The notes: generated by a model not told the origin, from the sequence alone. Counted from the stretch's first letter, positions 11,418 to 39,689 are shown. The stretch is 39,689 bases of DNA from Candidatus Woesearchaeota archaeon (GCA_964462045.1 CAYWWB010000004.1:1-39689); one strand, 5' to 3'. Numbers and translations: made by a program.

Positions 11418-11438
11418 GATAAAATGTTTTTAAAGATT

Positions 11439-12308: not shown

Positions 12309-12309
12309 A

Positions 12310-12516
12310 ATGAAAATTTTTGTTAAATTACATCCAAGTTCTTCAAAAGAAGAAATAAAAAAACTTGAAGAATCTTTTTATGAAGTTTGGATTAAAGAAA
12401 AACCTCTTGAGAACCAAGCAAATAAGGCTCTTGAGAAAATTATGAAAAAGTATTTTAGAAAACCTGTTAAAATTGTTAGGGGTTTAAAATCCAAAAAGAA
12501 AATTTTAGAGATTTAG
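12310..12516 (+). CDS. DUF167 (YggU/UPF0235) family small protein
   Basis: 68 aa. Pattern V.V.P.S...I...E....V.I.E.P.EN.AN.AL...........V.I..G..SKKK.L.I is typical of DUF167. Follows the AEP gene by 1 nt. Confidence 0.6.
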   Translation: MKIFVKLHPSSSKEEIKKLEESFYEVWIKEKPLENQANKALEKIMKKYFRKPVKIVRGLKSKKKILEI

Positions 12517-13067
12517 ATATTGTGTCCGGGGCAAAGAATAGTGTAATCTATTGAATTAAGTTTTTCAAGAGAGTTTTCCATATCTTTTGGAGAACTTTCA
12601 AAAAAATCAGTTCTTCCTATACCATTATGAAAAAGAGTATCACCTGAAAATAAAATCCCTTTTTCCCCATAATATATGCATATACTTCCTGGGGTGTGTC
12701 CAGGAGTTTTAATTATTTTTAATTCAGGGAAATTTTTTCTTACTTCTTCTGCTTTTTTTATTTCAGGAAATTTTTCTTCAGGAAAATCTTTTTTACTTGC
12801 GTAAATTTTGAGGTTTTTATTTTTTATTTTAAACAAATCCAAATTACCCAAATGGTCCCAATGATTATGTGTTAAGATTAATTTATTGATATCTGAAGGC
12901 TTTAAATTTATCTCTTCAAGTCCTGAAATAAGTTCTTCTTGGTTATTGTAAGAAGTTGTATCTATTAGTATATATTCTCCCCTTATTTTTAATAAATAGA
13001 CACTTGAGCCAAAAAATCTAAAATTTAGTTCCCAAACATTGTCTTGGTTTTCAATTCTTTTTATCAT
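12513..13067 (-). CDS. MBL-fold metallo-hydrolase (glyoxalase II-like)
   Basis: HxHxDH motif THNHWDH, then TPGHTPGS, SGDTLF and CPGH ligand motifs. The start is moved to the ATG at 13067 (MIKRIENQ...), which removes the overlap with the divergent gene at 13124. Confidence 0.85.
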   Translation of the reverse strand: MIKRIENQDNVWELNFRFFGSSVYLLKIRGEYILIDTTSYNNQEELISGLEEINLKPSDINKLILTHNHWDHLGNLDLFKIKNKNLKIYASKKDFPEEKFPEIKKAEEVRKNFPELKIIKTPGHTPGSICIYYGEKGILFSGDTLFHNGIGRTDFFESSPKDMENSLEKLNSIDYTILCPGHNI

Positions 13068-13123
13068 ATTAAAACAAAAGGAATATTTTATATAAGATTT
13101 ACTCTTGAAGTTTTTAGAAGAAA

Positions 13124-13522
13124 ATGAAATATGAATTTGCTCCGGATTTGCAAACACTTGCAGAAGAAATTTGTTTATTATTATTTCCTCACATAAAAAT
13201 AACAAAAATAAAATGTTTTAGAAGTTATGGGAGTTCTACAAAAAGGACAATTGCAAGATGCCATACTTTGGGAAAGATAATGCAAATGGCTATAGGGGTT
13301 GAAGCATATTATGCAATAGAAGTTCTTTCTGAAAAATTTGATAAGCTTTCTGAAAAAGACAAAGTGAAAACAATAATTCATGAGTTAATGCATATACCAA
13401 AAGCTTTTGGGGGTGGATTCAGACATCATGACTGGGTTACTAATAAAAATGTAAATAAGATGTATAAAACTTACAAAGCTAAAAAAGAAGAAAGAAAAAA
13501 GATAAATAATTGGTTTCAATAA
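13124..13522 (+). CDS. Predicted small Zn-metallopeptidase (HExxH; SprT/COG4900-like)
   Basis: HELMH motif in IIHELMHIPKAFGGGFRHHD, with basic N- and C-terminal parts. Confidence 0.6.
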   Translation: MKYEFAPDLQTLAEEICLLLFPHIKITKIKCFRSYGSSTKRTIARCHTLGKIMQMAIGVEAYYAIEVLSEKFDKLSEKDKVKTIIHELMHIPKAFGGGFRHHDWVTNKNVNKMYKTYKAKKEERKKINNWFQ

Positions 13523-13953
13523 TGTAATTTTAGTTTTTTTTCTAAATCTTTTACATCGCCATTATTTAAATGAATTAACTTAATATTATTTTTTTTCATA
13601 GAATCAATTTTTTCTCCAGAAAGAAAAATTTCCAGATGATAAAATCTATTCCATTTTCCATCAAACTCACATCCATTTAACTCTTCTTCTGTATTTAATT
13701 CATAAGGAGCAGAGCATAATGTTTCATCTATTGTCGGATGATAGGTATATAATCTATTTACATTATTGTATTTTAAACATTTTAAAACATTAGAAAAATC
13801 AAATAATTCATCCCAACCTAATTCAAATTTTTTTAAAACAGGTTTTAAGTAATTATTTTTTATTGTATAAAGCATAAATTGGCTATTATTCTCAAAGTAA
13901 TCATTGTCCCAGATTTCAAAACCAAATACTCTTTTATCCTTTTCCATATCCAT
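13516..13953 (-). CDS. Hypothetical protein
   Basis: Long ORF. The track start at 13968 is GTG; the first ATG is at 13953. No recognisable motif. Confidence 0.5.
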   Translation of the reverse strand: MDMEKDKRVFGFEIWDNDYFENNSQFMLYTIKNNYLKPVLKKFELGWDELFDFSNVLKCLKYNNVNRLYTYHPTIDETLCSAPYELNTEEELNGCEFDGKWNRFYHLEIFLSGEKIDSMKKNNIKLIHLNNGDVKDLEKKLKLHY

Positions 13954-13986
13954 CAAAGTTATAAACACTTTTTAATTATTATTATA

Positions 13987-14316
13987 ATGAAGATAAAATA
14001 TGGGAATAAAAAAATTGAAATTCCAGTAAAAAAAGTTTCTTTTTTAGGAAAAATAAGGGGTTTAATGTTTAGAAAAAAAGAGATTTCTCCTGCTTTATTA
14101 TTTGAATTTAATAAAAATACTTCTTTAGAAATACATTCTTTTTTTGTAAGTTTCTCATTTTTGGCTTTGTGGCTTGACGAGAAAAACAATCTTTTAGAAA
14201 AAAAAATAGTTAAACCAAACAAAATAAAAATAAAACCAAAAGAAAAATATAGGAAGCTCGTCGAGATACCCTTAAACAGAAAGTTCGACGATATAATTTC
14301 AAACCTCGTCGATTAA
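13987..14316 (+). CDS. DUF192 (COG1430)-like small protein
   Basis: The ATG at 13987 gives MKIKYGNKKIEIPVKKVSFLGKIRGLMFRK...LLFEF...FLALWLDEKNNLL. The G.mfr / l.F / D pattern resembles DUF192. Confidence 0.5.
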   Translation: MKIKYGNKKIEIPVKKVSFLGKIRGLMFRKKEISPALLFEFNKNTSLEIHSFFVSFSFLALWLDEKNNLLEKKIVKPNKIKIKPKEKYRKLVEIPLNRKFDDIISNLVD

Positions 14317-14389
14317 CAGAAACATTTAAATAGTAAATAGTCTCAATACTATTATTGGGGAAACTCAAACTAAATAAAAGGAGGTAAAA

Positions 14390-14599
14390 ATGGGAAAGAT
14401 AATTGCTAAGAACATTGTCGAGAGAAAACCAGGATATCTTTACTACGTTGATTCTAAGGGAAACGTATGTGAAGCTAAAATGGCTAGAGGTGGTAAAAAG
14501 AAAAAAAAGAAGGCTACTAAGAAAAAAGCTTCTAAAAAGAAAACCACTAAAAAGAAGACAACAAAGAAAAAAGCTTCTAAAAAGAAAAAGAAGAAATAA
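14390..14599 (+). CDS. Small basic protein: ~35-aa N-terminal domain plus poly-Lys/Thr/Ser tail; candidate nucleic-acid-binding protein
   Basis: Strong SD AAGGAGGT 7 nt upstream of the ATG. N-terminal KPGYLYYVDSKGNVCEAKMARGG, then KKKKKKATKKKASKKKTTKKKTTKKKASKKKKKK. Confidence 0.65.
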   Translation: MGKIIAKNIVERKPGYLYYVDSKGNVCEAKMARGGKKKKKKATKKKASKKKTTKKKTTKKKASKKKKKK

Positions 14600-14643
14600 T
14601 TTCTCATAGTTGTCTTTTTATTTTTTTTATTTTTTTAATTAAT

Positions 14644-14652
14644 TTTATATAT
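14644..14652 (+). promoter_or_regulatory. TATA box (TTTATATAT) 20 nt upstream of the kae1 ATG
   Basis: Sequence and spacing match the other promoters in this window. Confidence 0.45.
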
Positions 14653-14672
14653 TGTTTTTTGTTTTGATTTTC

Positions 14673-15689
14673 ATGGATAAAATAATAGTCTTAGGAATAG
14701 AATCAACAGCACATACTTTTGGAGTTGGAATTGTCAAAGGTAAAGAAGTTCTGGCTAATGTTAAAGATATGTATACTACAGAGTCTGGAGGCATAATTCC
14801 AATGGATTCTGCTAAACATCATAAAGAAGTTTCTGAGAACGCCTATAATAAAGCTCTGGAGGAAGCAGGGATTAAGGAAGAAGAAATTGATTTAATTGCA
14901 TTTTCACAAGCTCCTGGTTTGCCCCCTTGTTTAATTGAAGGAATGAAATTCGCAAAGAAGATTTCAAAAAAACTTGGTGTTCCGTTAGTTCCTGTAAATC
15001 ATTGTATTGCTCATTTAGAAATTGGAGATTTAGTAGGGGCGAAAGATCCTGTTATGCTTTATACTTCTGGGGCGAATACACAAGTTATTGCTTATGAGGC
15101 AGGGAAGTACAGGGTTTTTGGTGAAACCTTGGATGTAGGGGTTGGAAATTTTATTGATAATTTTGCAAGATTTTTAGATTTGGGATTTCCTGGAGGACCT
15201 AGAATTGAAAAATTAGCCTCTAAAGGAAAGAACTTAATTGAAATACCTTACAGAGTTAAAGGGATGGATATTGCATTATCTGGAATTTTAACTAATTTAA
15301 AACAAAAATTTGAATCTGAAAAATATTCAAAAGAAGATTTAGCTTATTCTCTTCAGGAAACTGTTTTTGCTATGCTAGTTGAAACTGCTGAGAGAGCTTT
15401 GGCTCATACTGGGAAAAAGGAATTGCTTTTGGGAGGGGGTGTTGCTTGTAATTCTCGTTTACAGGAAATGTGTAAGCAAATGTGTGAAGAAAGAGACAAA
15501 TCTTTAGGAGAAGTTAATTTTTTTGTGCCTGATAAAAGTCTATTGGTGGATAATGGAGCTATGATTGCATATCTTGGTTTAAAGATGTTTAAAGCAGGAA
15601 TAAGTTATAAACCAAATTCTAAGGAATTTGAAGAACTTGATATAAAACCTCGTCAGAGAACAGATGATGTTGAAGTTTTGTGGAGATAG
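14673..15689 (+). CDS. kae1: tRNA N6-adenosine threonylcarbamoyltransferase Kae1 (KEOPS catalytic subunit), stand-alone
   Basis: LGIESTAHTFGVGIV, metal-binding HCIAHLEIG, GGGVACNSRL, DNGAMIA. The track start at 14652 is TTG; the ATG at 14673 lies 20 nt downstream of the TATA box at 14644..14652. Confidence 0.92.
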   Translation: MDKIIVLGIESTAHTFGVGIVKGKEVLANVKDMYTTESGGIIPMDSAKHHKEVSENAYNKALEEAGIKEEEIDLIAFSQAPGLPPCLIEGMKFAKKISKKLGVPLVPVNHCIAHLEIGDLVGAKDPVMLYTSGANTQVIAYEAGKYRVFGETLDVGVGNFIDNFARFLDLGFPGGPRIEKLASKGKNLIEIPYRVKGMDIALSGILTNLKQKFESEKYSKEDLAYSLQETVFAMLVETAERALAHTGKKELLLGGGVACNSRLQEMCKQMCEERDKSLGEVNFFVPDKSLLVDNGAMIAYLGLKMFKAGISYKPNSKEFEELDIKPRQRTDDVEVLWR

Positions 15690-15748
15690 TTATACAAAAA
15701 ATTATTGGAAAAGATTAGATTTTTATAATAAATATTTTTTCTATTAAA

Positions 15749-16081
15749 ATGAAATCTAAAGACATTAAAGGGATAATGCATGATTTGCTTGATTTAAGAA
15801 ATTGGAGGAATCCTCTTCAGATGGTTTCAATTCCAAATAAAATTGAACTAGATTTGATTACTGGGGAAGGAAATTGGGATGAAGAAGATAGTTTAACTGA
15901 ACTATTAGAAGAAAAAAGAGGGTGGTTTTTAGATAGAATAAAATCTCTAAAAGGAGATATAAAGGATTTTCAAAAAGCTAAAATTATTGTTTTTGTAGCT
16001 AAAGAAAAAGTAAAAATTAAATATAAAGGAAAAGAATTTGAGAAAGAAAGAGTTCTTGATCCTTGGTTATCTCAAGTTTAA
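15749..16081 (+). CDS. Hypothetical 110-aa protein directly abutting the radical SAM gene
   Basis: The stop TAA at 16079..16081 is immediately followed by the ATG at 16082. No Cys and no recognisable domain. Confidence 0.55.
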   Translation: MKSKDIKGIMHDLLDLRNWRNPLQMVSIPNKIELDLITGEGNWDEEDSLTELLEEKRGWFLDRIKSLKGDIKDFQKAKIIVFVAKEKVKIKYKGKEFEKERVLDPWLSQV

Positions 16082-17185
16082 ATGTATTACCACATTATTT
16101 TAACAGAAAGATGTAATTCACAATGTAGGTATTGTTATGAGAAGTCTTTGAAAGAATTTGATAATTCTCTTTCTGAAAAATGGGAATTTGAATTTGATGT
16201 TCCAAGTGAGACTGAAGTTTCTGTTGAAAAATTAAAGAATTTTATAAAAAAAGACGATGTAATTATATTTTATGGTGGAGAACCTTTATTAAAAATTAAG
16301 AAGATTAAAGAAATTATGGATGCTTTTCCTGAAAATAGATTTTGTATGCAAACAAACGGGAAATTATTGAATAAGATTTCTTCAGAATATCTAAATAAGA
16401 TGTCAAAAATTTTAGTTTCTATTGACGGAGACAAGGAAAGAACAGACTTTAACCGAGGCAAAGGAACTTATAATTTAGTTATGAAGAACCTTGATTTTAT
16501 TAGAGAAAACGGTTTTGAAGGAGAGATTGTTGCAAGGATGACTTTGGATAATGAAATTGGAAGTGATATTTATGAACAAGTTAAACATTTAATTGAAACA
16601 AAAAAATTTGATTCTTTTCATTGGCAAATAGATGCTGGTTTTTATGAGTTTGATTTTGATTATGGGAAAATAAAAATATTTGTTGAAGAATATAATAAAA
16701 GCATAACAAAACTTGTTAATTATTGGGTAGAAAACATAAAAAGGGGAAGGGTTTTGAAAATATATCCTTTTTTAGGAATATTTGAAAGCTTGTACTTTGG
16801 AAAGAAAACAAAATTGAGATGTGGAGCAGGTTATGCAAATTATACTATTACAACTAATGGAAAAATTGTTGCTTGTCCGATTATGAATAATATTAAGAAT
16901 TTCCAGTGTGGGAATTTGGATTCTAATGAGCTTAAAGATATTAATGTTATTGAGCCTTGCAGTTCTTGTGAATATTTAGATATTTGTGGGGGAAGATGTC
17001 TTTATAGTAATTATGCAAAACTCTGGCCTAAAGAAGGGCAAGAGCTAATTTGTAAAACAATAATTCATTTAATTAATTCTATAAAAGAAAAAATTCCTGA
17101 AATAAAAACAGCTTTAGATAAAGATATTATAAAAATAGAAGATTTTGATTATGAAAAATATTTTGGTCCTGAGATTATTCCTTAG
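16082..17185 (+). CDS. Radical SAM enzyme with C-terminal SPASM domain (peptide/protein-modifying maturase-like)
   Basis: CNSQCRYC (CxxxCxxC) at residues 11-18. GGEPLL. Complete SPASM signature: CGAGYANYTITTNGKIVAC, then CSSCEYLDICGGRC (CX2CX5CX3C). Confidence 0.88.
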   Translation: MYYHIILTERCNSQCRYCYEKSLKEFDNSLSEKWEFEFDVPSETEVSVEKLKNFIKKDDVIIFYGGEPLLKIKKIKEIMDAFPENRFCMQTNGKLLNKISSEYLNKMSKILVSIDGDKERTDFNRGKGTYNLVMKNLDFIRENGFEGEIVARMTLDNEIGSDIYEQVKHLIETKKFDSFHWQIDAGFYEFDFDYGKIKIFVEEYNKSITKLVNYWVENIKRGRVLKIYPFLGIFESLYFGKKTKLRCGAGYANYTITTNGKIVACPIMNNIKNFQCGNLDSNELKDINVIEPCSSCEYLDICGGRCLYSNYAKLWPKEGQELICKTIIHLINSIKEKIPEIKTALDKDIIKIEDFDYEKYFGPEIIP

Positions 17186-17507
17186 TTTTATAATCACTTT
17201 TTAATCTTTTTACAACATATTTAACATGGCTTGAAACTGTTTTTCTGTAACGAGATTCAGCAGTTGAATTGTCTGTATGCCATTTCGCATCTTCTAGTTT
17301 TGAAAAAGCCCTATTAATATTTCTTCTTACATTTTTATTTTTTAACATATAATCTGGAATTTTAGAAAAATATTCTTCTGCTTTATCATAAATTGAATTT
17401 AACCAGGTTTTATTTAATCCACGATGTATTAAATTAGTATTAGATAAATAAATTAAATTCCCATAAGCTTCTGTTGCTTTAGTTTTTTGAAATCTTTTTT
17501 TATTCAT
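17175..17507 (-). CDS. Hypothetical small helical protein (last gene of a 4-gene minus-strand operon)
   Basis: Start lies 1 nt after the stop of the upstream gene. Basic and helical. No motif recognised. Confidence 0.55.
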   Translation of the reverse strand: MNKKRFQKTKATEAYGNLIYLSNTNLIHRGLNKTWLNSIYDKAEEYFSKIPDYMLKNKNVRRNINRAFSKLEDAKWHTDNSTAESRYRKTVSSHVKYVVKRLKSDYKTKE

Positions 17508-17508
17508 T

Positions 17509-17793
17509 TTAACCTATATTAACATCTCCTCTCGGAGCATTTTCGCTCATATATTCTATTTTAGATAAAGAATTTTTTAATGCTGTTTCTAATTGTGAAG
17601 AAACTGTGTCTATATTTTCCTGTATTTCAGAATCTCTAAACTGCCTTGGAATCTGTTTTTTGTATTCATTGAATCTCTCTATATTTGATTCTACAAAAAT
17701 TCTTTTTTCTTGAGAAGAAGAATCATATTTATCTTTTAATTGCATTAAATTTTGATATGCTTTTATTGCATCTGTTATTTCGTAATTTTTCAT
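17509..17793 (-). CDS. Hypothetical small helical protein
   Basis: Lies 16 nt downstream of the Ig-repeat gene. Charged helical composition. Confidence 0.55.
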   Translation of the reverse strand: MKNYEITDAIKAYQNLMQLKDKYDSSSQEKRIFVESNIERFNEYKKQIPRQFRDSEIQENIDTVSSQLETALKNSLSKIEYMSENAPRGDVNIG

Positions 17794-17809
17794 TTTAAAA
17801 AATAAAAAA

Positions 17810-18961
17810 CTAATAAGGAGCTTCAGCTCCGAAAAGTTCCCAAAGCCAGTTTATGAATCTTTGAAACCAATTAAGTTCCCTATCATCTTCTGATACATCT
17901 ACTTCTGTTGTCTTTGGTTCGTATTGTTTTTTGTAAATTTTATGTTCATAACTTTCTTCTTCATCATCTTCATCATCTTCTGAAAGACTTGGATTGATTT
18001 TGAAATCTACACTTTTATTATTTTCATTACCATTTGAATCAGTTGCATAAATTGTTAATGTGTAATTTCCTTTATCTAATACTATTGAATCATCATATGA
18101 ACTAACAAATCCAGCAGTCAAAGATCTTCTTGAAATTCTTTGAGTACCATTTAATTCATATTCTAATTCTGCTGATTCATCTGTAGATATAGTTATGTTT
18201 ATTTGATTAACTTCATATTCTTCTCCATCTATTGGTGAATCAATTGTAATTTCTGGAGCAGTTGTATCAACATCTGGTAATGTATTTACTGTAAATGTAA
18301 CACTATCACTTCCTTCATTTCCATTAACATCAGTTGCATAAACTGTTAAAGAGTTTGAACCTTCTTGAGTAGTTATTGTAAAAGGACTATTACACCCTGA
18401 AATTGTTTGTCTGCTTCCACCATTAAGAACATATTCACAAGTATCTATTCCTTCATTATCAGTAGCATCAAACCCAACTGTAACATCAGTTGAATCTAAT
18501 GTTTCTCCATTACTTGGAGAATTTATTGTTACTTGAGGAGCTTCATTATCTTCTCCTTTTACTGTTAAAGATAATTCGTTTGATATAGATGTTGAACCAT
18601 CTTTTAATTCTACATATAAAGTTAGTGTATGTTCTCCTACAGAAGTTGTTTTTCCTATAGTAACATCATTTTGATAATATAAAGAACCCCCTGCAGCAGA
18701 ATTTTGTTCAAACCCTGAATTCCATGTTCTAACTGGAGTTCCGTCTATCCTTAATGAAACTTCTTTTATTTCAGAAACATCATATGTAAGAACTTCAAAA
18801 TCTACTTGAGTGTTTTTTCCTTCAGTTATAGTTCCTGAAAATCCTGAATCATATTGTAAGTTAGTGTCTATATTAGCAGCTTGAATAAATCCTAAAGAGA
18901 TAACTAAAGCTAAGAAAATCATTAATACTCTTCCAGCCTTATTAAAATTATTTTGTGTCAT
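17810..18961 (-). CDS. Secreted protein with tandem Ig-like domains, acidic linker and amphipathic Trp-rich C-terminus
   Basis: Signal peptide RVLMIFLALVISLGFIQA. Repeats APQVTINSPSNGETL...TVYATDVNGNEGSDSVTFTVN and APEITIDSPIDGEEY...TIYATDSNGNENNKSVDFKIN resemble PPEITLISPNNE...CTDEVGNIGESETRTITV of the giant protein. C-terminus NWFQRFINWLWELFG. Confidence 0.8.
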   Translation of the reverse strand: MTQNNFNKAGRVLMIFLALVISLGFIQAANIDTNLQYDSGFSGTITEGKNTQVDFEVLTYDVSEIKEVSLRIDGTPVRTWNSGFEQNSAAGGSLYYQNDVTIGKTTSVGEHTLTLYVELKDGSTSISNELSLTVKGEDNEAPQVTINSPSNGETLDSTDVTVGFDATDNEGIDTCEYVLNGGSRQTISGCNSPFTITTQEGSNSLTVYATDVNGNEGSDSVTFTVNTLPDVDTTAPEITIDSPIDGEEYEVNQINITISTDESAELEYELNGTQRISRRSLTAGFVSSYDDSIVLDKGNYTLTIYATDSNGNENNKSVDFKINPSLSEDDEDDEEESYEHKIYKKQYEPKTTEVDVSEDDRELNWFQRFINWLWELFGAEAPY

Positions 18962-18962
18962 T

Positions 18963-20411
18963 TTATCTGTTTAAATACCAATTTATTCCTAAACCATATT
19001 TAAAATCTCCAGATTTGCTTTTTTCTCCAAGCCCGGTTTCATATTTTACATTTCCTTCTACTGAAAAACTACTATTATCTTTTCCAGGAAAATACTCTAT
19101 TCCTGCAGAACCTGTAAAAGTAACTTCTTTTCCTAAATTTTTAATATAATTATCTCCTTCTCCATTACCTATCTCAAGTCTTGTTGAATCAACCACATTT
19201 CCATTTGCGTCTTCTGATATTATGTCTGTTGATATCTCCCCTTCATATTGTTGTTTAACATTTCTATAAGTCAATCCAACTTTTCCCTCCAATCCAAAAC
19301 TGTTTGAAATCATTCCGTTAAAACTAATTCCTGCTCCCCATTCATAATTTTGATACATAGGAGTTTTAGTAACATCTTTATTAGTTATAGCATATCTAGT
19401 TGTATCTCCTTCTTTATATAGAGGTTCTTTTTCTTGTTGAAGACTTTCATTTGTAGGTTTTCCTAAATTCCATGTATTATTTTGGTTCCCTATATTATAT
19501 GATATAAAAGGCCCTATTGAAAGATTTTCACTTCCAAATCCCAATGTAAAAGAAGCTTGTCCATAAAGATTGTCTCCAGCTACTACCCCATCAACATCTA
19601 ATTTTGGTTGGAACCAGCTTAAATCAAAATTCCTATTTCCACTTCTCTTCTTACTTTTATCATCATAAGGAGAATAAAAATTATCTTCTTCTACTTCAAC
19701 AATTCCTTGAACTTCACCAGTTGTAGGTTCTATTAAGTCATATTTTTTGGGATAATCTGAGTTTAAAATTCCTTCAAGATTTCCTCTTGATTTTTCTTTA
19801 TCAACTTTCCATCCCCAAATTTCATCAGTTTGAACATAATAGTTTTCTCTGTTGTCTGTTACACCAATTTCTTGAACATCATCTTTGTATGCCCAAACAA
19901 CATTTTGTTTTTCTCCATTTCCTGAAGGTTGGTGAAAATAATAAACTGTATCATTTATTCCGTCACTTCCTTTTATAACGAGTGTCTTAAATAAATTTGA
20001 GAAATCTTTTGTTTTAATTTCTAATTTATCTCCTTGAAAATCTAAGTTTTTTGTATCATATTGAGGAGTAGCATCTTCTGGTTTTTTTGCAAATTGACCA
20101 GAATTATTTAATATAATTCTATTTCCTTCAATTTCATAAGGAGAAAATACAACACTAGGTTTATTACCATTCATTTTACTAACAGGATATTTTTCAATTC
20201 CCAAAGGATTATCTCTTGATTCTTTAATTTCTTTAAAAGCGTAAACAGTTCCATGTTCCATGATAGCTTCTTGAGTTTCACTACTTCCCACAGAACCAGA
20301 TTGAGTAAAATCAACATCTTGAGCTTTAACATTAGGTGATAAAGCTGTAAGAGCTGCTAATCCTAAACCTCCTAAAAGGCTTTTGAATTTGTTTGTTTTT
20401 TTGTTTGTCAT
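18963..20411 (-). CDS. Secreted 482-aa protein whose C-terminal half looks like a transmembrane beta-barrel (OMP-like)
   Basis: Signal peptide FKSLLGGLGLAALTALSPNVKA/QD. C-terminal half has alternating Gly/aromatic-rich strands: YGQASFTLGFGSENLSIGPFISYNIG, YEWGAGISFNGMISNSFGLEGKVGLTYRN, VTFTGSAGIEYFPGKDNSSFSVEGNVKYETG, and terminal FKYGLGINWYLNR. Confidence 0.75.
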   Translation of the reverse strand: MTNKKTNKFKSLLGGLGLAALTALSPNVKAQDVDFTQSGSVGSSETQEAIMEHGTVYAFKEIKESRDNPLGIEKYPVSKMNGNKPSVVFSPYEIEGNRIILNNSGQFAKKPEDATPQYDTKNLDFQGDKLEIKTKDFSNLFKTLVIKGSDGINDTVYYFHQPSGNGEKQNVVWAYKDDVQEIGVTDNRENYYVQTDEIWGWKVDKEKSRGNLEGILNSDYPKKYDLIEPTTGEVQGIVEVEEDNFYSPYDDKSKKRSGNRNFDLSWFQPKLDVDGVVAGDNLYGQASFTLGFGSENLSIGPFISYNIGNQNNTWNLGKPTNESLQQEKEPLYKEGDTTRYAITNKDVTKTPMYQNYEWGAGISFNGMISNSFGLEGKVGLTYRNVKQQYEGEISTDIISEDANGNVVDSTRLEIGNGEGDNYIKNLGKEVTFTGSAGIEYFPGKDNSSFSVEGNVKYETGLGEKSKSGDFKYGLGINWYLNR

Positions 20412-32859: not shown

Positions 32860-33600
32860 TTATTTCCCTTTTCTAACTTTAAATATTATTGTGGGAGGCA
32901 CATGGTTCATTGCTTTTGGAAGAAATTCCCATACATTATACCAGGGATCCTTTTTATAGTGTTTCCTAGAATCTGGTTCAATAATTTTTTCTATTTTGAA
33001 ATTTGCTTCAACTAAAATGTTAACTATATCAGAAATTTTTCTATGATACATAACAAATTTTTCATTTCCATCTCTTTCTTCCCATTTCCCTGTTTTAAAA
33101 TAACTTTTTATTATCTTTAATGTTTTTGGATTTATGAGGCTATAAAAAGGATGAGGTATAGCTAAAACAAAATTTCCTCCTTTCTTTAATACACGATGCA
33201 CTTCTTTAAAACAACTTTCTAGATTATCTACGTAATGCAAAGCCCAGGCAGTAAAAACAATATCCTGGCTATTTGGTTTTATCTTATTTAGTTTTTTTAC
33301 ATCTCCTTGATATAGATCTATTTTTGCTTTGTTTTTTTCTGCTAATTTTTCTGCAAATTTCAATTGTTCTTTAGAAATATCTATTCCGGTAACTTTTGCA
33401 CCTTTTTTAGCCATAGCAATTCCGCATTGGGCTCCTCCGCAACTTATTTCAAGAATTTTCTTATTTTTTAAATCACCTAATAATTTTAACTTATCTTCAA
33501 AAGGGGCTCCCGGTCCATAATGTATTCCTATTGGAATTTTACATTTCTCTTGGTAGTTTTTAGAAGAATATTCCCACCACTCTTTTGTTTCTTTTGTCAT
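32860..33600 (-). CDS. Class I SAM-dependent methyltransferase
   Basis: Motif I ILEISCGGAQCGIAMAKKGAKVTGIDIS, then DIVFTAWALHYV and LKKGGNFVL. Confidence 0.85.
   Translation of the reverse strand: MTKETKEWWEYSSKNYQEKCKIPIGIHYGPGAPFEDKLKLLGDLKNKKILEISCGGAQCGIAMAKKGAKVTGIDISKEQLKFAEKLAEKNKAKIDLYQGDVKKLNKIKPNSQDIVFTAWALHYVDNLESCFKEVHRVLKKGGNFVLAIPHPFYSLINPKTLKIIKSYFKTGKWEERDGNEKFVMYHRKISDIVNILVEANFKIEKIIEPDSRKHYKKDPWYNVWEFLPKAMNHVPPTIIFKVRKGK
33346..33400. repeat. 55-nt exact direct repeat, copy 1 (inside the methyltransferase gene); copy 2 is at 39635..39689
   Basis: tttttctgcaaatttcaattgttctttagaaatatctattccggtaacttttgca is identical at both places. Copy 2 is cut by the window end. Confidence 0.95.
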
Positions 33601-33635
33601 TTCAACCTCTTCTCATAATTATATAAGGAATCTTT

Positions 33636-33869
33636 TTAAAACTTTTTCTTAGTTTCATAATAATTTTTTTCAAATTTTTTATAATCCAAATCTCTTAAAT
33701 TTGAACCAATCCTTTGAATTCCATCATATACAATAGCTCCAAAACCAATACCTAAAACAAAATAATCAGTAATGTTTCCATTTCCAAGAAAAAAAGTTGA
33801 AAGAGGAGATAAACTCTCTAAACTTCCCAAACCAATATTCAAATAATTCTCTAAATTTTGTCTTTTCAT
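33636..33869 (-). CDS. Hypothetical 77-aa membrane protein (last gene of the orphan operon)
   Basis: Hydrophobic GNITDYFVLGIGFGAIVY. Starts 1 nt after the upstream stop. Confidence 0.55.
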   Translation of the reverse strand: MKRQNLENYLNIGLGSLESLSPLSTFFLGNGNITDYFVLGIGFGAIVYDGIQRIGSNLRDLDYKKFEKNYYETKKKF

Positions 33870-33870
33870 T

Positions 33871-34380
33871 TTAATTTTTTGTTATATCAATAACTTTATT
33901 TCCTAAATGAATATCTTTCATCTCTCCTTTTGAAGAATTATAATGGCTTCTTTCTAAAGGGTAATTCCCTATTACTGGATTCTTATTTACAGGTAAAAAT
34001 AGATTGTCTCCTTGTTTTTTTATAAAGGCAAGATATAATCCACCTGAGTTATTAATTTGTTCATTGTTTCTTAAAATATTATAATTTTCATCACTGATAT
34101 GAACATTATCTACTTCAAAACCATGCCTATAAATTGCACTACTTAAGAAATTTAAAAATTCCTTTTCATTAGAACCCATGTTTTGATTCACATATCCAAT
34201 AACTTCAGGTCTTTGAGAATATTTTTCACATATTAAATTATAGTTAGGAATAAATACTATTGAATCAGAAGGTTCATCTACTTTTCCTTCAATTGTTTTA
34301 AACCTTTGAACTCTTCCATCGGGCAAGTGTGTGTATACAGATTCTCTTTCAGTCTTAAATCCTTTTATATTTTTATCCAT
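33871..34380 (-). CDS. Hypothetical 169-aa protein
   Basis: The ATG at 34380 (MDKNIKGF...) overlaps the upstream stop by 8 nt. The longer track ORF (to 34551) runs through a GC-rich Gly tract in another frame and is not preferred. Confidence 0.55.
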   Translation of the reverse strand: MDKNIKGFKTERESVYTHLPDGRVQRFKTIEGKVDEPSDSIVFIPNYNLICEKYSQRPEVIGYVNQNMGSNEKEFLNFLSSAIYRHGFEVDNVHISDENYNILRNNEQINNSGGLYLAFIKKQGDNLFLPVNKNPVIGNYPLERSHYNSSKGEMKDIHLGNKVIDITKN

Positions 34381-34870
34381 TGTAATTGCTTGATTTATTT
34401 TGTTTATTTTGTGGAACGTATGCAAGAATAATTCCGCATCCTGCTCCTGCTGCTCCACCACCCCCGCCTCCTGAAGATCCTCCAAATCCACCAAATCCAC
34501 TGCTTTTCTTACTCTCATCAATTTCCCATGACTTAATTGGTTTTTCCTCATTTAATTTTTCTACTAATTTTTCTATTGCTCCTTTTTCTGGTCCGTGTTT
34601 TCCTCTTCCAATTTTATACTTTAACTTTCCTATAATACTTGAATCAGGCAAGTAATCAACATTCTTTTTTGATGAATCTCTCTGAATTGCTTTTGAAACC
34701 AAGTATTTTTGTAATTCTTTGTTTGGAGTTACTTCGTAGTTTTTATTTGTTTCACTTCTAACTGGTTTGTATTTTCCTGCAAAATCTGGATTGGGCTGAT
34801 ATTTTGGTTCTGCCTTACTTGATACTAGAAGATTTCTTTCATACTTTGCTAGGTGTTTTTTGTTTGTCAT
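34373..34870 (-). CDS. Hypothetical 165-aa basic protein with a C-terminal poly-Gly tract and hydrophobic end
   Basis: MTNKKHLAKYE...; C-terminal SSGFGGFGGSSGGGGGGAAGAGCGIILAYV. Confidence 0.6.
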   Translation of the reverse strand: MTNKKHLAKYERNLLVSSKAEPKYQPNPDFAGKYKPVRSETNKNYEVTPNKELQKYLVSKAIQRDSSKKNVDYLPDSSIIGKLKYKIGRGKHGPEKGAIEKLVEKLNEEKPIKSWEIDESKKSSGFGGFGGSSGGGGGGAAGAGCGIILAYVPQNKQNKSSNYNG

Positions 34871-34883
34871 TTTATTCTGTTAT

Positions 34884-35330
34884 TTATTTAATTGAGTCTT
34901 GGATCTTTGATAATGCTTCAAATAGTTGCTTGTTTTTTTCATCCAGTTTTCTATTTGTTTCCTTTGTTTCTCTAATGTATTTCTGTAATGCTTCATCATT
35001 CTTGTATTTTTTATTTAACAAAGGACCAGAACTATATTCTCCAATTCCTACACCATATAAACTTCCGATGTCTCTTTCAAGATTACTTCCTGCTACTCTG
35101 TCAGCAAGAGTATTTCCTGAATTCTCTTCAACAGACTCTGGCTCTAATTCAATACCCGAAGGATTGTTTTTTTCTTTATAATTTTTTGGAGCGTCATCTT
35201 CTGAATTCATAGTAAGGCTCAAAATTTCTCTAACACTTAGATAGTCTTTTCTTTTCAATTCTTTCTCATGTTCAGGGCTGGGAATTTCATTATCTCTTAC
35301 TGCTTCCCAATCATACTTCATCTCTTTCAT
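34884..35330 (-). CDS. Hypothetical 148-aa acidic/helical protein
   Basis: ATGA overlap with the upstream gene. No motif recognised. Confidence 0.55.
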   Translation of the reverse strand: MKEMKYDWEAVRDNEIPSPEHEKELKRKDYLSVREILSLTMNSEDDAPKNYKEKNNPSGIELEPESVEENSGNTLADRVAGSNLERDIGSLYGVGIGEYSSGPLLNKKYKNDEALQKYIRETKETNRKLDEKNKQLFEALSKIQDSIK

Positions 35331-35836
35331 TTTGTCTTTTCCTCCTGTATTTTTTGTTCTAATGCTTTTCTGATTTTCTTTGAATGTTCCCCAGTTAAAT
35401 TGTCATATGCCTTGTTTATCCTTTCTCCAGTTATTCCCCTTACTTCACCAAATGCTTCAGTCTGTTTGGAATTCATATACTCTGTCAATCCAAGTTCATA
35501 CATATTATCTTCCATTGTTTTACATACTCCGCATTCCGGATTGTGAACTATATAACCCATTCCTCCTTCAAAACCATCTATTTGATGTAAAGGTAGTAAG
35601 TCTTCTTTCTTTAGATAATTGGACATAACAAGTCTTTCATCTCCATTTTCAGCTGAGCTTATTTCCTCAATTATGTCGTCAATGTCTAATTGCACATCTT
35701 TTCCGTAATTTATTTCCCATGCTTTATTAAATGCTTTACTTTCAACTCTACTTTCTATATTCTCTTTCAGCTTAGAGTATTTTTCCTTAAGTTCTTTAAG
35801 TCCTTCTTGTTTTTTTGTATATTTTTTGTTTGTCAT
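35327..35836 (-). CDS. Hypothetical 169-aa protein
   Basis: MTNKKYTKKQEG...; single CGVC pair. Starts 1 nt after the upstream stop. Confidence 0.55.
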   Translation of the reverse strand: MTNKKYTKKQEGLKELKEKYSKLKENIESRVESKAFNKAWEINYGKDVQLDIDDIIEEISSAENGDERLVMSNYLKKEDLLPLHQIDGFEGGMGYIVHNPECGVCKTMEDNMYELGLTEYMNSKQTEAFGEVRGITGERINKAYDNLTGEHSKKIRKALEQKIQEEKTK

Positions 35837-35837
35837 T

Positions 35838-36227
35838 TTATCTTCTCATTTGATAATTTACTTTAGATTCATAGTTATTTGTAGGGTTGTAACTAGCAGG
35901 GCCAATGTTTTCTACTTTAGCACTGTCATATTGTTTTTGAACTGGTTCAGGATTGTAATTATTTTGCCAAGTAGGAGAGATACAGTAAAAAGCAGCGGCA
36001 GTTCCAATAGTTGCAAAGCTCACAGCTATAGCTGTTTTTACTCTTTCTCCTAAATCTTTTTCAAACAAAGAGCTAGTTGGTTTTTTTGTGAAACCAGTAG
36101 GTCTCTTAGTGAAACCCTTAGTTTTCCTAAATCCTTTCTTTCTCTTGTTAAATCCTTTTGTGTTTGTTTTGTTTGTCATTTTATTTTTTGTTTTTTGTTT
36201 ATTTGGATGATATTTTGTTATCATCAT
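35838..36227 (-). CDS. Hypothetical membrane protein with a basic (T/K)KGF(N/R/T)K repeat N-terminus and one TM helix
   Basis: TKGFNKRKKGFRKTKGFTKRPTGFTKKPT, then TM AIAVSFATIGTAAAFYCI. The ATG at 36227 lies 23 nt from the TATA box at 36251..36258. An alternative internal start is at 36179 (MTNKTN...). Confidence 0.55.
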   Translation of the reverse strand: MMITKYHPNKQKTKNKMTNKTNTKGFNKRKKGFRKTKGFTKRPTGFTKKPTSSLFEKDLGERVKTAIAVSFATIGTAAAFYCISPTWQNNYNPEPVQKQYDSAKVENIGPASYNPTNNYESKVNYQMRR

Positions 36228-36250
36228 GTAATGAATACAATTACAAAGAT

Positions 36251-36258
36251 TATTTAAA
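36251..36258 (-). promoter_or_regulatory. TATA box (minus-strand TTTAAATA) 23 nt upstream of the ATG at 36227 of the orphan operon
   Basis: Lies in the 95-nt divergent intergenic region shared with the TrmB gene. Confidence 0.4.
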
Positions 36259-36285
36259 TGTTACCCTCCTACAAGTGTAGAGTAA

Positions 36286-36302
36286 TAGAAAGATTTATAT
36301 AT
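36286..36302 (+). promoter_or_regulatory. BRE/TATA (tagaaaga-TTTATATAT) 20 nt upstream of the TrmB-family gene ATG
   Basis: Sequence and spacing match the other promoters. Confidence 0.45.
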
Positions 36303-36322
36303 TCTCGGAATTATGGAGGATT

Positions 36323-37069
36323 ATGATTGAAAATGTATTGAGAGAAATAGGACTTACACAGAATGAGATTAAAGCATATCTTGCTTTATTAGATTTAGGA
36401 GAATCAAAAACCGGAGATATCTTGAAAGAGTCAGGACTTAATTCAGGTAAGATATATGAAATTCTGGATTCCCTCCATAAAAAAGGGCTAGTGTCCTATA
36501 TTACAAAATCAGGTGTGAAATATTTTAGTCCTGCAAACCCTAAAAGGCTTCTGGATTATCTGGAGGAGAAAAAAGAGAACATAAAAAAGCAGGAAGAGGA
36601 TTATAAAGATATTTTACCGCAGCTAATGAACAAGGTTTCTTCAACAAAATCAGAATCAAAAATAGAAGTTTTTACAGGATTAAAAGGGATGAAAAATGCT
36701 CATTTAAAAGAGCTTGAATTCCCTAAATCAGAGACTGTATATGTTTTAGGAGTAGGTCCTGCTGAAAAATACAAAAAAGAAATATGGGATTTCTTTGTAT
36801 ATAATCTTGAACCTAAAAGAGAAGAAAAAGGACATGAGGTAAGAAAATTACTAACAGAAGATGCAAGAGGAAGTGAAAAAGCTCATGGAAAACACGCTAA
36901 AATCAGATATTTGCCTTATGCTTCTTTAGTATCAATGAATATTGTGGGTAATCTAACAACAATAGGTTTATTTACAAAAGAACTTATTTTTATATCAATA
37001 GAAAGCCAGGAAATAGCAGACAGTTTCAAGGAACAGTTCAACAATCTCTGGAAGATTGCTAAGGATTAG
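36323..37069 (+). CDS. TrmB-family transcriptional regulator (N-terminal wHTH plus C-terminal domain)
   Basis: LREIGLTQNEIKAYLALLDLGESKTGDILKESGLNSGKIYEILDSLHKKGLVSYI is a typical TrmB HTH. Divergent from the orphan operon, with a 95-nt shared intergenic region. Confidence 0.85.
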   Translation: MIENVLREIGLTQNEIKAYLALLDLGESKTGDILKESGLNSGKIYEILDSLHKKGLVSYITKSGVKYFSPANPKRLLDYLEEKKENIKKQEEDYKDILPQLMNKVSSTKSESKIEVFTGLKGMKNAHLKELEFPKSETVYVLGVGPAEKYKKEIWDFFVYNLEPKREEKGHEVRKLLTEDARGSEKAHGKHAKIRYLPYASLVSMNIVGNLTTIGLFTKELIFISIESQEIADSFKEQFNNLWKIAKD

Positions 37070-37305
37070 GTTTTTTACCAATGCATCACATTAATATAAA
37101 CAGGAGATTTAGTTGAAAGAACTTTTTTTATGAAATTGTCTTTTTTCTTAGTTCAGGTGGGCTTTTATCCATCCCATAAAATTTGAGGTGCGCGCTCTTT
37201 TTTGCTTTTTTCTTTTTAAAGAAGAAGATGAAGGGTTCTTATTTTGCTTCTTTTTCTAAAAGAAGGTTCCGTTAAGTTTTAATATTAGAAAAACTAAGAA
37301 AGTTT

Positions 37306-37917
37306 ATGAAAGAATCACACCCTTGGGTAAAAGCTGAAAGAGAGTTTTATAAAAAGATGTATGGGGATTTAGTGAGAGACTTAGATTTATCAAAACCAAT
37401 CTCTGTTTTAGATTATGGTGCAGGAACTGGAGGATTTGCAGGTTTTTTAGCAGAATACAATCCACAAATAAAAGTTACTGCTGTTGATTCAAATCCTGAA
37501 GCAGTTAAATTGGGAAGAGAACACTACCAACATCTTCCTAATTTAGAATTTCTTGTCTCAGATGAAATTCCAAAAGGAAATTATGATTTAATTTTCAAAA
37601 ATTTAGTTTTGCATGAACTTAGTGGAAAAGGAGACAAGAAAACCATTACATCTTTTTTAAAAAAAGCCCATAAGTATTTGAAAGATGAAGGACTAGTTTC
37701 TGTTTTAGATAACAGAAAAATCCCCGAAGAAGACTTTAAACAAATCTATGAAAATAACCAAAGTAGAAGAAAGGGGACTTTTGAAGAAGAGTATCAGGAA
37801 CATAATAGATATACTATGAAAGATTGGCAAGAGATGTTAGAAAAATCTGGATTTTATACGGAAAAACATGCAGAACTTCCACCAAATCTGTTTCATTACA
37901 GAGGTCGGAAGAAATAA
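37306..37917 (+). CDS. Class I SAM-dependent methyltransferase
   Basis: Motif I VLDYGAGTGGFAGFLAE, then DLIFKNLVLHEL and LKDEGLVSV. Confidence 0.8.
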   Translation: MKESHPWVKAEREFYKKMYGDLVRDLDLSKPISVLDYGAGTGGFAGFLAEYNPQIKVTAVDSNPEAVKLGREHYQHLPNLEFLVSDEIPKGNYDLIFKNLVLHELSGKGDKKTITSFLKKAHKYLKDEGLVSVLDNRKIPEEDFKQIYENNQSRRKGTFEEEYQEHNRYTMKDWQEMLEKSGFYTEKHAELPPNLFHYRGRKK

Positions 37918-37919
37918 TT

Positions 37920-37933
37920 TCGGCGTAAGCCGA
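37920..37933 (+). terminator. Stem-loop with GNRA-type loop (tcggc-gtaa-gccga) directly after the methyltransferase stop
   Basis: A 5-bp GC-rich stem starts 3 nt after the TAA at 37915..37917. Function as a terminator or processing signal is inferred only. Confidence 0.3.
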
Positions 37934-38123
37934 CAAATTGTCCGAAGGACTAAGAACCCCTCAAAGTAAATGAAAAATTTGGGTGTAACGAAGTGAAACC
38001 TTTTATCGTTTGTTAAGCGAAATTTTCCCAAAATTTCGAGAGAGTTTTTTTGGTTCGATAAAAGAAGTTTTTCTATTTTTGTCGAAGACAAAAACTATCT
38101 GTGCGTAGCACTAGCGCGCTTCT

Positions 38124-38174
38124 TTGGGTGGGACTTATCAATTAGAGATTTAAATTTTTAGCAGAAGAAAAAAT
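38124..38174. repeat. 51-nt exact direct repeat, copy 1 (copy 2 at 39010..39060)
   Basis: ttgggtgggacttatcaattagagatttaaatttttagcagaagaaaaaat is identical at both sites, 886 nt apart, flanking ORF 38278..39009. Confidence 0.95.
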
Positions 38175-38277
38175 CGAGATTTTGCGAAGCAAAATCGGAG
38201 GAGTAGCGATTGCTATTTTAGGGGGAGGGATTAGGCATGTGCGATAACTTAATAAAAACCCAATATTTCTAAATATT

Positions 38278-39009
38278 ATGAATGTTCAAAAAGCAAAATC
38301 TCAAATAAAAAAATTAGCAGAAGAGTTTGATTTAAAATATAAGCCAAATTGGTTTAAACATTTATGGATTTCTGTGAGGCATGAAATTTTAACAGAATAT
38401 ATTGGAACTTGCCCAGATCCAATTTATCAAAAATACGGAAAAACCGCAGAACAAAGAATAAAAAATATTGATAAATTTGTAAATTCAAAAGATTTCAAGG
38501 ATTGTCTAAAAAGATATGGTGGGCAAGTTTCACAAAAAAGCAAGTTAAAGCAAGAAGAAAAATGGATTAAACAAATTAAGAATGAAGAATTGAAAAACGA
38601 GCTTTTAAAATTTCATGCTAAACTAAAAAACCAATTTGGAGAAAATGATTTTTTGGCTCTTCTGACAATACCAAGAAATAAAAAAGAAAAAGAATGGCAA
38701 ATGAGATTTTGCTTGAGGCACGAATGGATTCACATTTTATTGGACAAAAATAAAATTCAATTTCAGGAAATTGCTAAAAAATATTGGCCATATGACGAGG
38801 GAATAAATGAATACATGGGTGCCTATTTAGATGGCACATTGGATAAGTTAGAAAAATTTAGGGACAAAGAAAATTATCCAATGGAAAAGAAAAATTGGGT
38901 TTATGCTATAAAATTGAGAGAATTGTTTAAAAATAAAAAAACTCCAAAGGAAAGAAAAAAAGCACTTCTCGATTTGATTTCTAATTTAAAAAATCGAGCA
39001 CATGCCTAA
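38278..39009 (+). CDS. Hypothetical 243-aa protein with an HExxH motif (possible metallopeptidase-like)
   Basis: LRHEWIHILL contains HEWIH. Lys-rich helical protein. The stop codon abuts repeat copy 2. Confidence 0.55.
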   Translation: MNVQKAKSQIKKLAEEFDLKYKPNWFKHLWISVRHEILTEYIGTCPDPIYQKYGKTAEQRIKNIDKFVNSKDFKDCLKRYGGQVSQKSKLKQEEKWIKQIKNEELKNELLKFHAKLKNQFGENDFLALLTIPRNKKEKEWQMRFCLRHEWIHILLDKNKIQFQEIAKKYWPYDEGINEYMGAYLDGTLDKLEKFRDKENYPMEKKNWVYAIKLRELFKNKKTPKERKKALLDLISNLKNRAHA

Positions 39010-39060
39010 TTGGGTGGGACTTATCAATTAGAGATTTAAATTTTTAGCAGAAGAAAAAAT
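39010..39060. repeat. 51-nt exact direct repeat, copy 2
   Basis: See copy 1 at 38124..38174. Confidence 0.95.
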
Positions 39061-39107
39061 TCGACTTAACAGAGCTTATATCTAATTTCAAATAATTTCT
39101 TAATTTG

Positions 39108-39124
39108 CGAAAAGCTATTAAATA
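39108..39124 (+). promoter_or_regulatory. BRE/TATA (cgaaaagc-TATTAAATA) 20 nt upstream of the GNAT ATG
   Basis: Sequence and spacing match the other promoters. Confidence 0.45.
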
Positions 39125-39144
39125 CACGCTTTTTTATTCTTATT

Positions 39145-39609
39145 ATGGTAGAAATTAGAAAAGCAAATCTTCAAGATGCAAATTCAATCAGTCAAATGAT
39201 GACTGAAAATATTAATTTACTTTCTTCAAAAAGTTATTCAAAAGAACAAATTTCGGCAATGAAAAAATATGTTTCTGAAGAAAATATAAAAAAATACATC
39301 AAAGATTTTGAAGTTTTCATTGCCTTAGATAATAATGAAGTTGTTGGCACGATTTCTTTTGATAAAGATTTAATTTTCTCTGTTTATGTTAAAGGTTCAA
39401 CAAATTTTATTGATAAAGGAATCGGAGATGAAATGTTAAAATTTGTAGAAAGCTATGCAAAGAAATTAGGAGAAAATAAAATCTCTGTTATTTCAATGCC
39501 AACAACAAAAACTTTTTTTGAAGAAAGAGGATACAAAGTTGTGGAAGATTTGCTATTAGATTTTGATGGCGTGGATTTTCCAGAATTTAAATTAAGTAAG
39601 AATATTTAA
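39145..39609 (+). CDS. GNAT-family N-acetyltransferase
   Basis: Size and pattern (IRKANLQDANSI..., VVGTISF..., GIGDEMLKFVESYAKKLG, ...FFEERGYK) fit GNAT motifs A and B. Confidence 0.75.
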   Translation: MVEIRKANLQDANSISQMMTENINLLSSKSYSKEQISAMKKYVSEENIKKYIKDFEVFIALDNNEVVGTISFDKDLIFSVYVKGSTNFIDKGIGDEMLKFVESYAKKLGENKISVISMPTTKTFFEERGYKVVEDLLLDFDGVDFPEFKLSKNI

Positions 39610-39689
39610 CGGAAATTATTTGAAACTCTGCGGTTTTTTCTGCAAATTTCAATTGTTCTTTAGAAATATCTATTCCGGTAACTTTTGCA
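39587..39689 (-). pseudogene. Truncated or divergent copy of the 32860..33600 methyltransferase (N-terminal part; continues beyond the window)
   Basis: The minus-strand frame reads ...AKVTGIDISKEQLKFAEKTAEFQIISVKYSYLI*. The first 18 residues are identical to the full-length gene, followed by divergence and an early stop that overlaps the GNAT 3' end. Confidence 0.45.

Follow-up and report, generated by a model that had tools for sequence, protein, structure and literature searches.

An assembler-length repeat at a Woesearchaeote contig end and a probably strain-variable 6-kb block in an accessory island

The 39,689-nucleotide (nt) stretch of DNA analysed here (the window), from a Candidatus Woesearchaeota archaeon (GCA_964462045.1, CAYWWB010000004.1:1-39689), carries a methyltransferase gene of which a 55-nt part recurs exactly, about 6 kb away, in the last letters of the stretch. 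An earlier note, made from the sequence alone, had read the two copies as the boundaries of a block left by an element that integrates into a gene while restoring it, or by a segmental duplication. We find that the length of the match comes from the assembler and that a real repeat of about 266 nt stands behind it. The explanation that we consider likely, well ahead of the others, is that the repeat copies enclose a strain-variable 6-kb block of a flexible genomic island, which is gained and lost by homologous recombination between them.

The 55-nt match is a link in the assembly graph

A repeat search of the window returned the direct exact match of 55 nt between positions 33346-33400 and 39635-39689, in the same orientation, as the earlier note had described it. 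The match widens to 63 nt at 95%, with three mismatches (33338-33400 and 39627-39689). An exact repeat of 55 nt within 40 kb is far beyond chance. The note had also treated the length of the repeat, and its running off the window, as biology, and here we depart from it, since the window is a whole contig and 55 is the assembler's k. The contig, C4, belongs to a metagenome-assembled genome (MAG) of 721 kb in 49 contigs. Among the 98 contig ends of this assembly, the terminal 55-mer was found at another place for 56 and the terminal 77-mer for only 4, and the longest terminal exact match was exactly 55 nt for 52. Such a distribution identifies a k=55 assembly graph, and the repeat length is the de Bruijn k of a SPAdes-type assembler (largest k=55), not a biological property. 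The repeat that seemed to run off the window is therefore a graph link, by which C4 connects at its 3' end to the node at 33346-33400.

By default, the largest k of SPAdes and metaSPAdes for short reads is 55, and neighbouring edges in their graphs overlap by k. The repeat resembles such an overlap in being exactly k long, in ending at a contig end, and in matching a node elsewhere, and half of this MAG's contig ends behave identically. It differs in that the overlap points into the same contig, where it mimics a direct repeat bounding a block, and in that a longer, real repeat lies behind it. The case serves mainly as a warning: when an exact repeat as long as the assembler's k, 55 nt or otherwise, reaches a contig end of a short-read MAG, it should be taken for a graph link and not for an attachment (att) site. 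Read as a link, it is informative, joining a second contig, C29, to C4 and pointing to a tandem stack of two allelic cassettes.

Further 55-mer links were observed among contig ends of the MAG (C2/C3, C6/C21, and C17/C38/C47), and some reach internal positions, for example, those from C9, C22, C28, and C33 into C2 1271-4011. These links indicate more collapsed repeats or strain-variable segments in the assembly.

The repeat behind the match

C29 ends in a 55-mer that is the reverse complement of C4 33457-33511, within the same methyltransferase gene, and its last 155 nt (8181-8335) match C4 33611-33457 at 98%. The two contigs are unrelated upstream of position -11; identity begins 11 nt before the ATG and takes in the same ribosome-binding site and the same start codon, followed by an N terminus with three nonsynonymous single-nucleotide polymorphisms (SNPs; MKKE..D15..GLGAPF in the C29 copy versus MTKE..N15..GPGAPF in the full C4 gene). 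All three SNPs fall in 33512-33611. The other 166 nt (33346-33511) are identical in both copies and were collapsed into one graph edge, which is entered from C29 and from C4 33612 upward and left toward C4 33345 downward and toward the C4 3' end. The biological repeat, R1, is thus about 266 nt long (33346-33611); one part of its second copy, R1', lies at the end of C4 and the other at the 3' end of C29. Followed past 39689, as the earlier note had proposed, identity continues through C29, with the 3 SNPs, to an intact N terminus and ribosome-binding site.

The divergence of the second copy, its early stop, and its overlap with the neighbouring gene all read as that note had claimed. In the minus-strand frame, the copy runs through AKVTGIDISKEQLKFAEK, passes into 15 unrelated codons (TAEFQIISVKYSYLI), and stops at 39589-39587, overlapping the 3' end of a convergent GNAT gene that ends at 39609. 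Joined with the C29 tail, it specifies a product of 100 amino acids (aa) that begins MKKETKEWWEYSSKDYQ and ends KFAEKTAEFQIISVKYSYLI. What lies beyond the window is this truncation, not the complete, diverged paralogue that the note had named as an outcome pointing to ordinary gene duplication. Judged against orthologues, the truncated copy bears derived changes at L30, a site occupied by P in 65 of 73 orthologues and by L in none, and at K2, where 47 of 71 have T.

Two cassettes for one slot

The layout described previously, in which a full gene is followed by about 6 kb of accessory and orphan genes and then by a truncated 5' copy, is anatomically correct (Table 1). Pfam supports the full methyltransferase, the TrmB-family regulator, the second methyltransferase (MTase2), and the GNAT, and the motif of the claimed HExxH gene is legible as HEWIH in the translation of its open reading frame (ORF). 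The block is a mosaic, which a short element, R2', divides into two parts, segment T and cassette B. R2' is the reverse complement of the end of a 354-aa gene on C29, with a sharp edge on the T side. No Pfam family was found for this 354-aa gene, and its homologues elsewhere are limited to the C-terminal domain and lack synteny.

A 3,540-nt contig in the Logan data described below shares both of its ends with C29 and replaces C29 4798-8180 (3,383 nt) with 3,464 letters that are those of C4 33612-37075, that is, cassette B. The replaced stretch, cassette A, encodes a methyltransferase, RsmH, a GNAT, another methyltransferase, and a DUF952-like ORF. Both cassettes fill the identical slot, whose limits are the 354-aa gene's stop codon on one side and the methyltransferase gene's ribosome-binding site on the other. 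The R2' fragment and the boundaries shared with the C29 cassette show that cassette B is an allelic alternative to cassette A.

Within segment T, a noncoding stretch of 360 nt separates MTase2 from the HExxH gene. The block proteins have no paralogues within the genome. A 169-aa orphan protein has two Logan homologues (68% and 35% identity), and the neighbours of the 68% homologue, the only one examined in this respect, differ from those in the block. C29 1-8335, which includes cassette A, is a near-unbroken run of small-molecule-modifying enzymes (four methyltransferases, RsmH, three GNATs, and deaminase-like, polysaccharide-deacetylase-like, and P-loop kinase-like ORFs), and it forms one accessory island with C4 32285-39689.

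Table 1. Features of the repeat-bounded region at the 3' end of contig C4
Feature	Position	Strand	Remarks
Full-length class I S-adenosylmethionine-dependent methyltransferase, 246 aa	32860..33600	-	Pfam Methyltransf_11, E=2e-22
R1, real repeat of ~266 nt	33346..33611	-	From ribosome-binding site (11 nt upstream of ATG) to codon 85 of the methyltransferase
Cassette B, 3,464 nt	33612..37075	-	Six-gene orphan operon and divergent TrmB-family regulator
Six-gene orphan operon	33636-36227	-	No Pfam or PHROGs families
TrmB-family regulator	36323-37069	+	E=1e-16
R2', 69 nt, 1 mismatch	37076..37144	-	Last 22 codons and stop of the 354-aa C29 gene (C29 4729-4797)
Segment T, 2,490 nt	37145..39634	+	MTase2, HExxH gene, GNAT
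Second methyltransferase (MTase2)	37306-37917	+	In segment T
Left 51-nt direct repeat of the HExxH insertion	38124..38174	+	Repeat search
HExxH gene	38278-39009	+	Inside an 886-nt insertion with 51-nt direct repeats
Right 51-nt direct repeat of the HExxH insertion	39010..39060	+	Repeat search
GNAT	39145-39609	+	Pfam E=2e-14
Truncated methyltransferase copy, 3' part	39587..39689	-	Codons 68-85, 15 unrelated codons, and stop
Terminal 55-mer of C4	39635..39689		k=55 graph overlap with internal node 33346-33400; assembler's trim point of the collapsed repeat

The block is depleted in three metagenome runs

Population data came from three runs of one study (X1, X2, and X3), the only runs in which the sequence was found, taken as Logan contigs (k=31), for which depth is the mean word depth per contig and not mapped read depth. 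A fourth run contained 7% of the flank words. All four junctions (F-R1, B-R1, T-R1', and T-R2', with F the flank formed by the rest of C4) occur in each run's own assembly, and they are therefore not chimeras of the MAG assembler. The contigs bearing the junction of T with R1 measure 623 nt in X1 and X2 (covering 39042-39664) and 188 nt in X3 (covering 39507-39664). Exact-protein look-ups for independent assemblies of the junctions returned the same Logan contigs or nothing, and a 41-nt pattern for the R1/F junction had no match in JGI metagenomes.

Table 2. Logan word depth of chromosome, block, and repeat segments in the three runs
Segment	X1	X2	X3
C4 1-20000 (genome)	21	42.5	13
F (flank)	19.2	41	12.7
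P (C29)	21.7	43.5	12.9
Cassette A	20.4	39.4	12.9
Cassette B	13	33.6	7.5
Segment T	10-11.5	23-30	5.6-6.7
R1 unitig (Logan, 250 nt, 33346-33595)	31	58.5	23.1
R2 unitig (Logan, 41 nt)	33.2	79.5	23.8

In all three runs, T and B stand at ~0.45-0.8 of genome depth, and each repeat (R1 and R2) has approximately the depth that the chromosome path and the block path give when added together (Table 2). Because of this deficit, we regard the block as missing in part of the population; judged by depth, it is probably absent from roughly 20-50% of cells. The earlier note had named the failure to find any strain without the block as a result that would count against its reading. Among the runs holding the sequence, none has the flank without the block, and it is depth within the three runs that indicates a part of the population lacking it. 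At position 33512, the majority allele is of the C29 type in every run, which is consistent with the A-linked copy of R1 being the more abundant.

The lower depth could in principle be an artefact, the segmental arrangement being fixed in every cell and its words diluted by SNP diversity or by mixed strains. The reliance on word depth and the heterogeneity of the population lend this explanation something, as the MAG and the X1/X3 Logan consensus differ at ~42-45 positions per 20 kb, the same positions in both runs (window 1-20000). We nevertheless consider it very improbable, for the deficit is consistent across 6 kb in all three runs, it begins and ends exactly at R1, and the repeats carry the sum of two flows. 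We also rejected the block as part of a separate, diverged strain (a strain chimera): depth is equal in P, A, and F, and only two flows add up to that of the repeats. Insertion through R2, giving P-B-T-A-F as the major form, was rejected as well, the k=55 contigs linking the R2 alleles P-A and T-B.

Some features of the strain mixture were observed in passing. The differences between the MAG and X1/X3 include a dense cluster at 16429-16490. Where X1 and X3 depart from the MAG, X2 mostly agrees with it, although contigs of X2 have differences of their own at other positions (17 in one 13-kb contig). The population comprises at least two strains, and the MAG seems nearer to the one dominant in X2. 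In X2, the consensus for the collapsed R1 unitig reads C instead of the MAG's T at 33444 and 33448. The R1 copies in X2 are probably distinguishable at these two positions, which are 99 nt away from the F/T junction and 64 nt away from the SNP at 33512, and single 150-nt reads could phase the repeat copies.

A block probably gained and lost between direct repeats

Our preferred explanation combines these results as follows. The 6.0-kb unit T-R2'-B would be present in ~50-80% of the population, and the remaining cells would have a fused empty site, A-R1-methyltransferase. In gene orientation, the long form would run P - 354-aa gene - A - truncated methyltransferase (100 aa) - T - R2' - B - full methyltransferase - F, with the genes of T (GNAT, HExxH, and MTase2) all on the opposite strand. 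Cassette B, allelic to cassette A, would have become stacked in tandem with it, and cells would gain or lose the block through Campbell-type events, in which the direct repeats recombine homologously. We infer the linkage A-R1'-T from graph flow together with the assembler's B-R1-F path, and the existence of the empty form from depth; recombination is the mechanism that we propose to connect the two forms.

Flexible genomic islands, in which strain-variable cassettes are exchanged by homologous recombination in conserved flanks, are an established concept from the population genomics of bacteria and archaea. The likeness to them lies in the alternative cassettes A and B between the same flanking genes, in boundaries that fall at a stop codon and a ribosome-binding site, and in an accessory cargo (methyltransferases, GNATs, a regulator, and orphans) that has native composition and is, by depth, polymorphic within one population. 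In contrast to the usual arrangement, the long form has both alternatives one after the other, with segment T and fragments of both flanking genes between them. Campbell-type integration by a single crossover offers a further parallel, with an insert between direct repeats of a shared fragment, one truncated and one complete gene, and no need of an integrase; it differs in that a circular intermediate was not observed here. Homologous recombination in a flexible island fits better than a discrete integrative element because the boundaries lie at gene ends, because A and B are allelic, and because fragments of both flanking genes occur in the block.

Several observations weigh against this explanation. 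Flow balance is good only to ~10%, and in X2 F and T add up to 65, whereas the node has a depth of 58.5. Cassette B is consistently somewhat deeper than T, which a simple model of two genotypes does not explain. The empty site follows from depth and the A-R1'-T linkage from the logic of a graph of Logan contigs, none of which spans R1, a repeat that exceeds k=31. The explanation does not account for the position of T between two gene fragments. Finally, a breakpoint in an orthologous gene on an unrelated metagenome contig, L077, described below, lies within ~5-10 nt of the end of R1 and, as a single case, is a hint of site preference as opposed to random homologous exchange. B exceeds T, and P exceeds A in X1 and X2, by small but consistent margins, which could reflect a third, B-only genotype arising from recombination of R2 with R2' and which lie within the ~10% noise of the flow balance.

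The same depths would also suit a free circle of 6,289 bp, R1-T-R2'-B (a small plasmid, an excised island, or a virus-like episome), present at ~0.5-0.8 copies per chromosome. The chromosome would then carry only A-R1-methyltransferase, and contig C4 would be chimeric at R1. Such a cycle does exist in the assembly graph, and the depths decompose equally well into a linear component of ~21x and a cycle of ~11-13x in X1, and likewise in X2 and X3. We nevertheless judge a circle unlikely. The assembler threaded B-R1-F, an adjacency contained in no molecule of such a model, and it did not make the C29-F join that the model predicts; that C29 ends at R1 would be expected of a contig with two continuations, T and F. 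The block has native composition and no replication, partition, or capsid gene, and a plasmid would not usually stay below 1 copy per chromosome in each of the three samples. The integrated long form is favoured because of these adjacencies and because a replicon that has no recognisable replication gene and falls short of one copy per cell in each of three samples is improbable.

As we interpret them, these data indicate that a 6-kb accessory block (TrmB, orphan operon, methyltransferase, HExxH gene, and GNAT) is polymorphic in a natural Woesearchaeote population. The case is a new example of an already known kind of strain variation, and it provides a small, concrete instance of gene-content turnover in the very reduced genomes of DPANN archaea by a mechanism that appears ordinary.

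Comparison with integrating elements

No integrase, Rep, capsid, or packaging gene came out of the Pfam and PHROGs scans, which covered every ORF of the block, in agreement with the earlier note, which had seen no integrase in the block. No tRNA or Rfam family was found in the block, and two block proteins searched in viral contigs had no relatives there. Compared with the rest of the genome, as that note had advised, the composition of the block is native: its tetranucleotide distance lies at the 74th to 76th percentile of 3-kb genome windows, and its GC content is 0.30. Two genes for tyrosine recombinases (PF00589) were found genome-wide, on C24 and C28. The block does not look like a self-mobile element. 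Of the proposal that an element had integrated into the gene, the anatomy stands, a full gene with a displaced 5' fragment, and the integrating element is not supported, given the lack of an integrase, the native composition, the lack of a tRNA or known RNA, and the mosaic structure.

A comparison with integron cassettes leads in the same direction. Units of one or a few genes inserted in series, one of them (the 886-nt HExxH unit) bounded by repeats, recall an integron. However, the block contains no intI, there is no tyrosine recombinase in or near it, and the bounding repeats are direct copies of targets (51, 69, and 266 nt) instead of structured attC sites. On reading, the bounding repeats showed no imperfect palindromes of the attC kind.

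A closer parallel is the e14 cryptic prophage of Escherichia coli K-12, which lies at icd with an icdC fragment pseudogene (PMC13626634; Hill et al. 1989 cited therein). There, as here, the insert lies between an intact gene and a homologous fragment of the same gene, and its loss fuses the two into a chimeric but complete gene. Unlike the present block, e14 duplicates the 3' end of its target, encodes its own site-specific integrase, and excises on SOS induction; the block duplicates the 5' end and the ribosome-binding site and has neither a recombinase nor phage genes. By analogy, the block could be, or have as its ancestor, an element that integrates site-specifically into the 5' part of the methyltransferase gene, brings its own copy from ribosome-binding site to codon 85, and restores the gene on integration, the recombinase acting in trans or having been lost. 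The full gene at one end (32860-33600) with the displaced 100-aa 5' fragment at the other, the substoichiometric depth of the block, and the two tyrosine recombinase genes elsewhere in the genome accord with such an element, as does the nested 886-nt insertion with its 51-nt duplicated target, which would be the same style of insertion used twice.

The orthologues of the methyltransferase bear on this alternative from both sides. They were found at 57 metagenome loci and in 14 species-level genomes, the latter MAGs of Woesearchaeota or Pacearchaeota, with 50-67% identity along the whole protein and up to 82% over the N-terminal 85 aa. All 14 species genomes have a single full-length copy. In a search for the empty site among relatives, the two genomes of the same genus proved to have no close orthologue. 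The best match (G019, 67%) lies in a different context, with methyltransferase, GNAT, and transposase genes. In L077, an internal 93-aa 5' fragment of an orthologous gene was found, whose homology to every orthologue ends at gene nucleotide ~246-251, compared with 255 here, that is, at codon 82-84 compared with codon 85. Unrelated DNA and a gene for a major facilitator superfamily (MFS) transporter follow the break. The chance of such a coincidence within ~10 nt of a 740-nt gene is roughly 1-3%. This breakpoint would suit a site-specific element, but L077 shares no sequence with T past the break, and the pairing of a full with a partial copy occurs in 0 of the 14 species-level orthologue loci. 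Moreover, no integrase lies in or beside the block, no related element was found in viral contigs, the internal R2' and the identical boundaries of A and B are not expected of a discrete element, and 266 nt is long for an att core. We consider a site-specific element about as improbable as the free circle and continue to favour homologous recombination in a flexible island.

Two candidate extensions of the L077 observation were discarded. Conservation of the truncated gene's tail after the break (FQI..Y) between G000 and L077 was rejected, as the stretch in L077 is a frameshifted KFAE region; nucleotide identity between the tails is at background, and blastn found nothing beyond the break. A second breakpoint case, L075, is a diverged or chimeric methyltransferase in which similarity continues to residue 97. 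At that locus, on an unrelated metagenome contig (Ga0209427_10332509, 213-1198), the 145-aa truncated or chimeric homologue lies between the C-terminal fragment of a serine recombinase (resolvase) and a P-loop (GEGKT) ORF, and the region may belong to a mobile element.

Nested insertion and intergenic elements

Inside segment T, the 886-nt unit with the HExxH gene has a counterpart site without the unit. On contig C43, positions 1528-1599 present the uninterrupted site, with 61-62 nt at 97-98% identity, the left flank matching the left C4 copy of the 51-nt repeat and the right flank the right copy. The unit is thus a second, smaller insertion inside the block that likewise duplicated its target.

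A broader and more speculative idea, to which we give slightly less weight than to either the circle or the site-specific element, is that DPANN archaea (Woesearchaeota) build accessory arrays by the serial insertion of small circular cassettes carrying copies of their targets, with a preferred crossover point near codon 82-85 of this methyltransferase family, at which the independent truncation in L077 hints. The target copies may measure 51 nt for the 886-nt HExxH unit and 69 and 266 nt for larger units. If this were true, serial insertion would constitute a cassette system, independent of an integrase or served by one in trans, that is distinct from integrons.

Conserved noncoding elements were observed bordering three unrelated gene sets in this genome. 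Rfam gave no match for these intergenic elements. As a genome-wide cassette boundary, the elements containing GGGTGGG were rejected, ~7 motif copies and elements at three loci being too few for an array. The gene sets concerned are MTase2 on C4 (elements at 37190-37268 and 37918-38174), an MFS transporter on C43 (105-141 and 1386-1599), and three small genes on C14 (1630-1703 and 3694-3890). The upstream elements measure ~40-80 nt and the downstream elements ~100-200 nt; they contain GC-rich hairpins and the motif TGGGTGGG..TAT..ATTAGRGA, present in ~7 copies in the genome.

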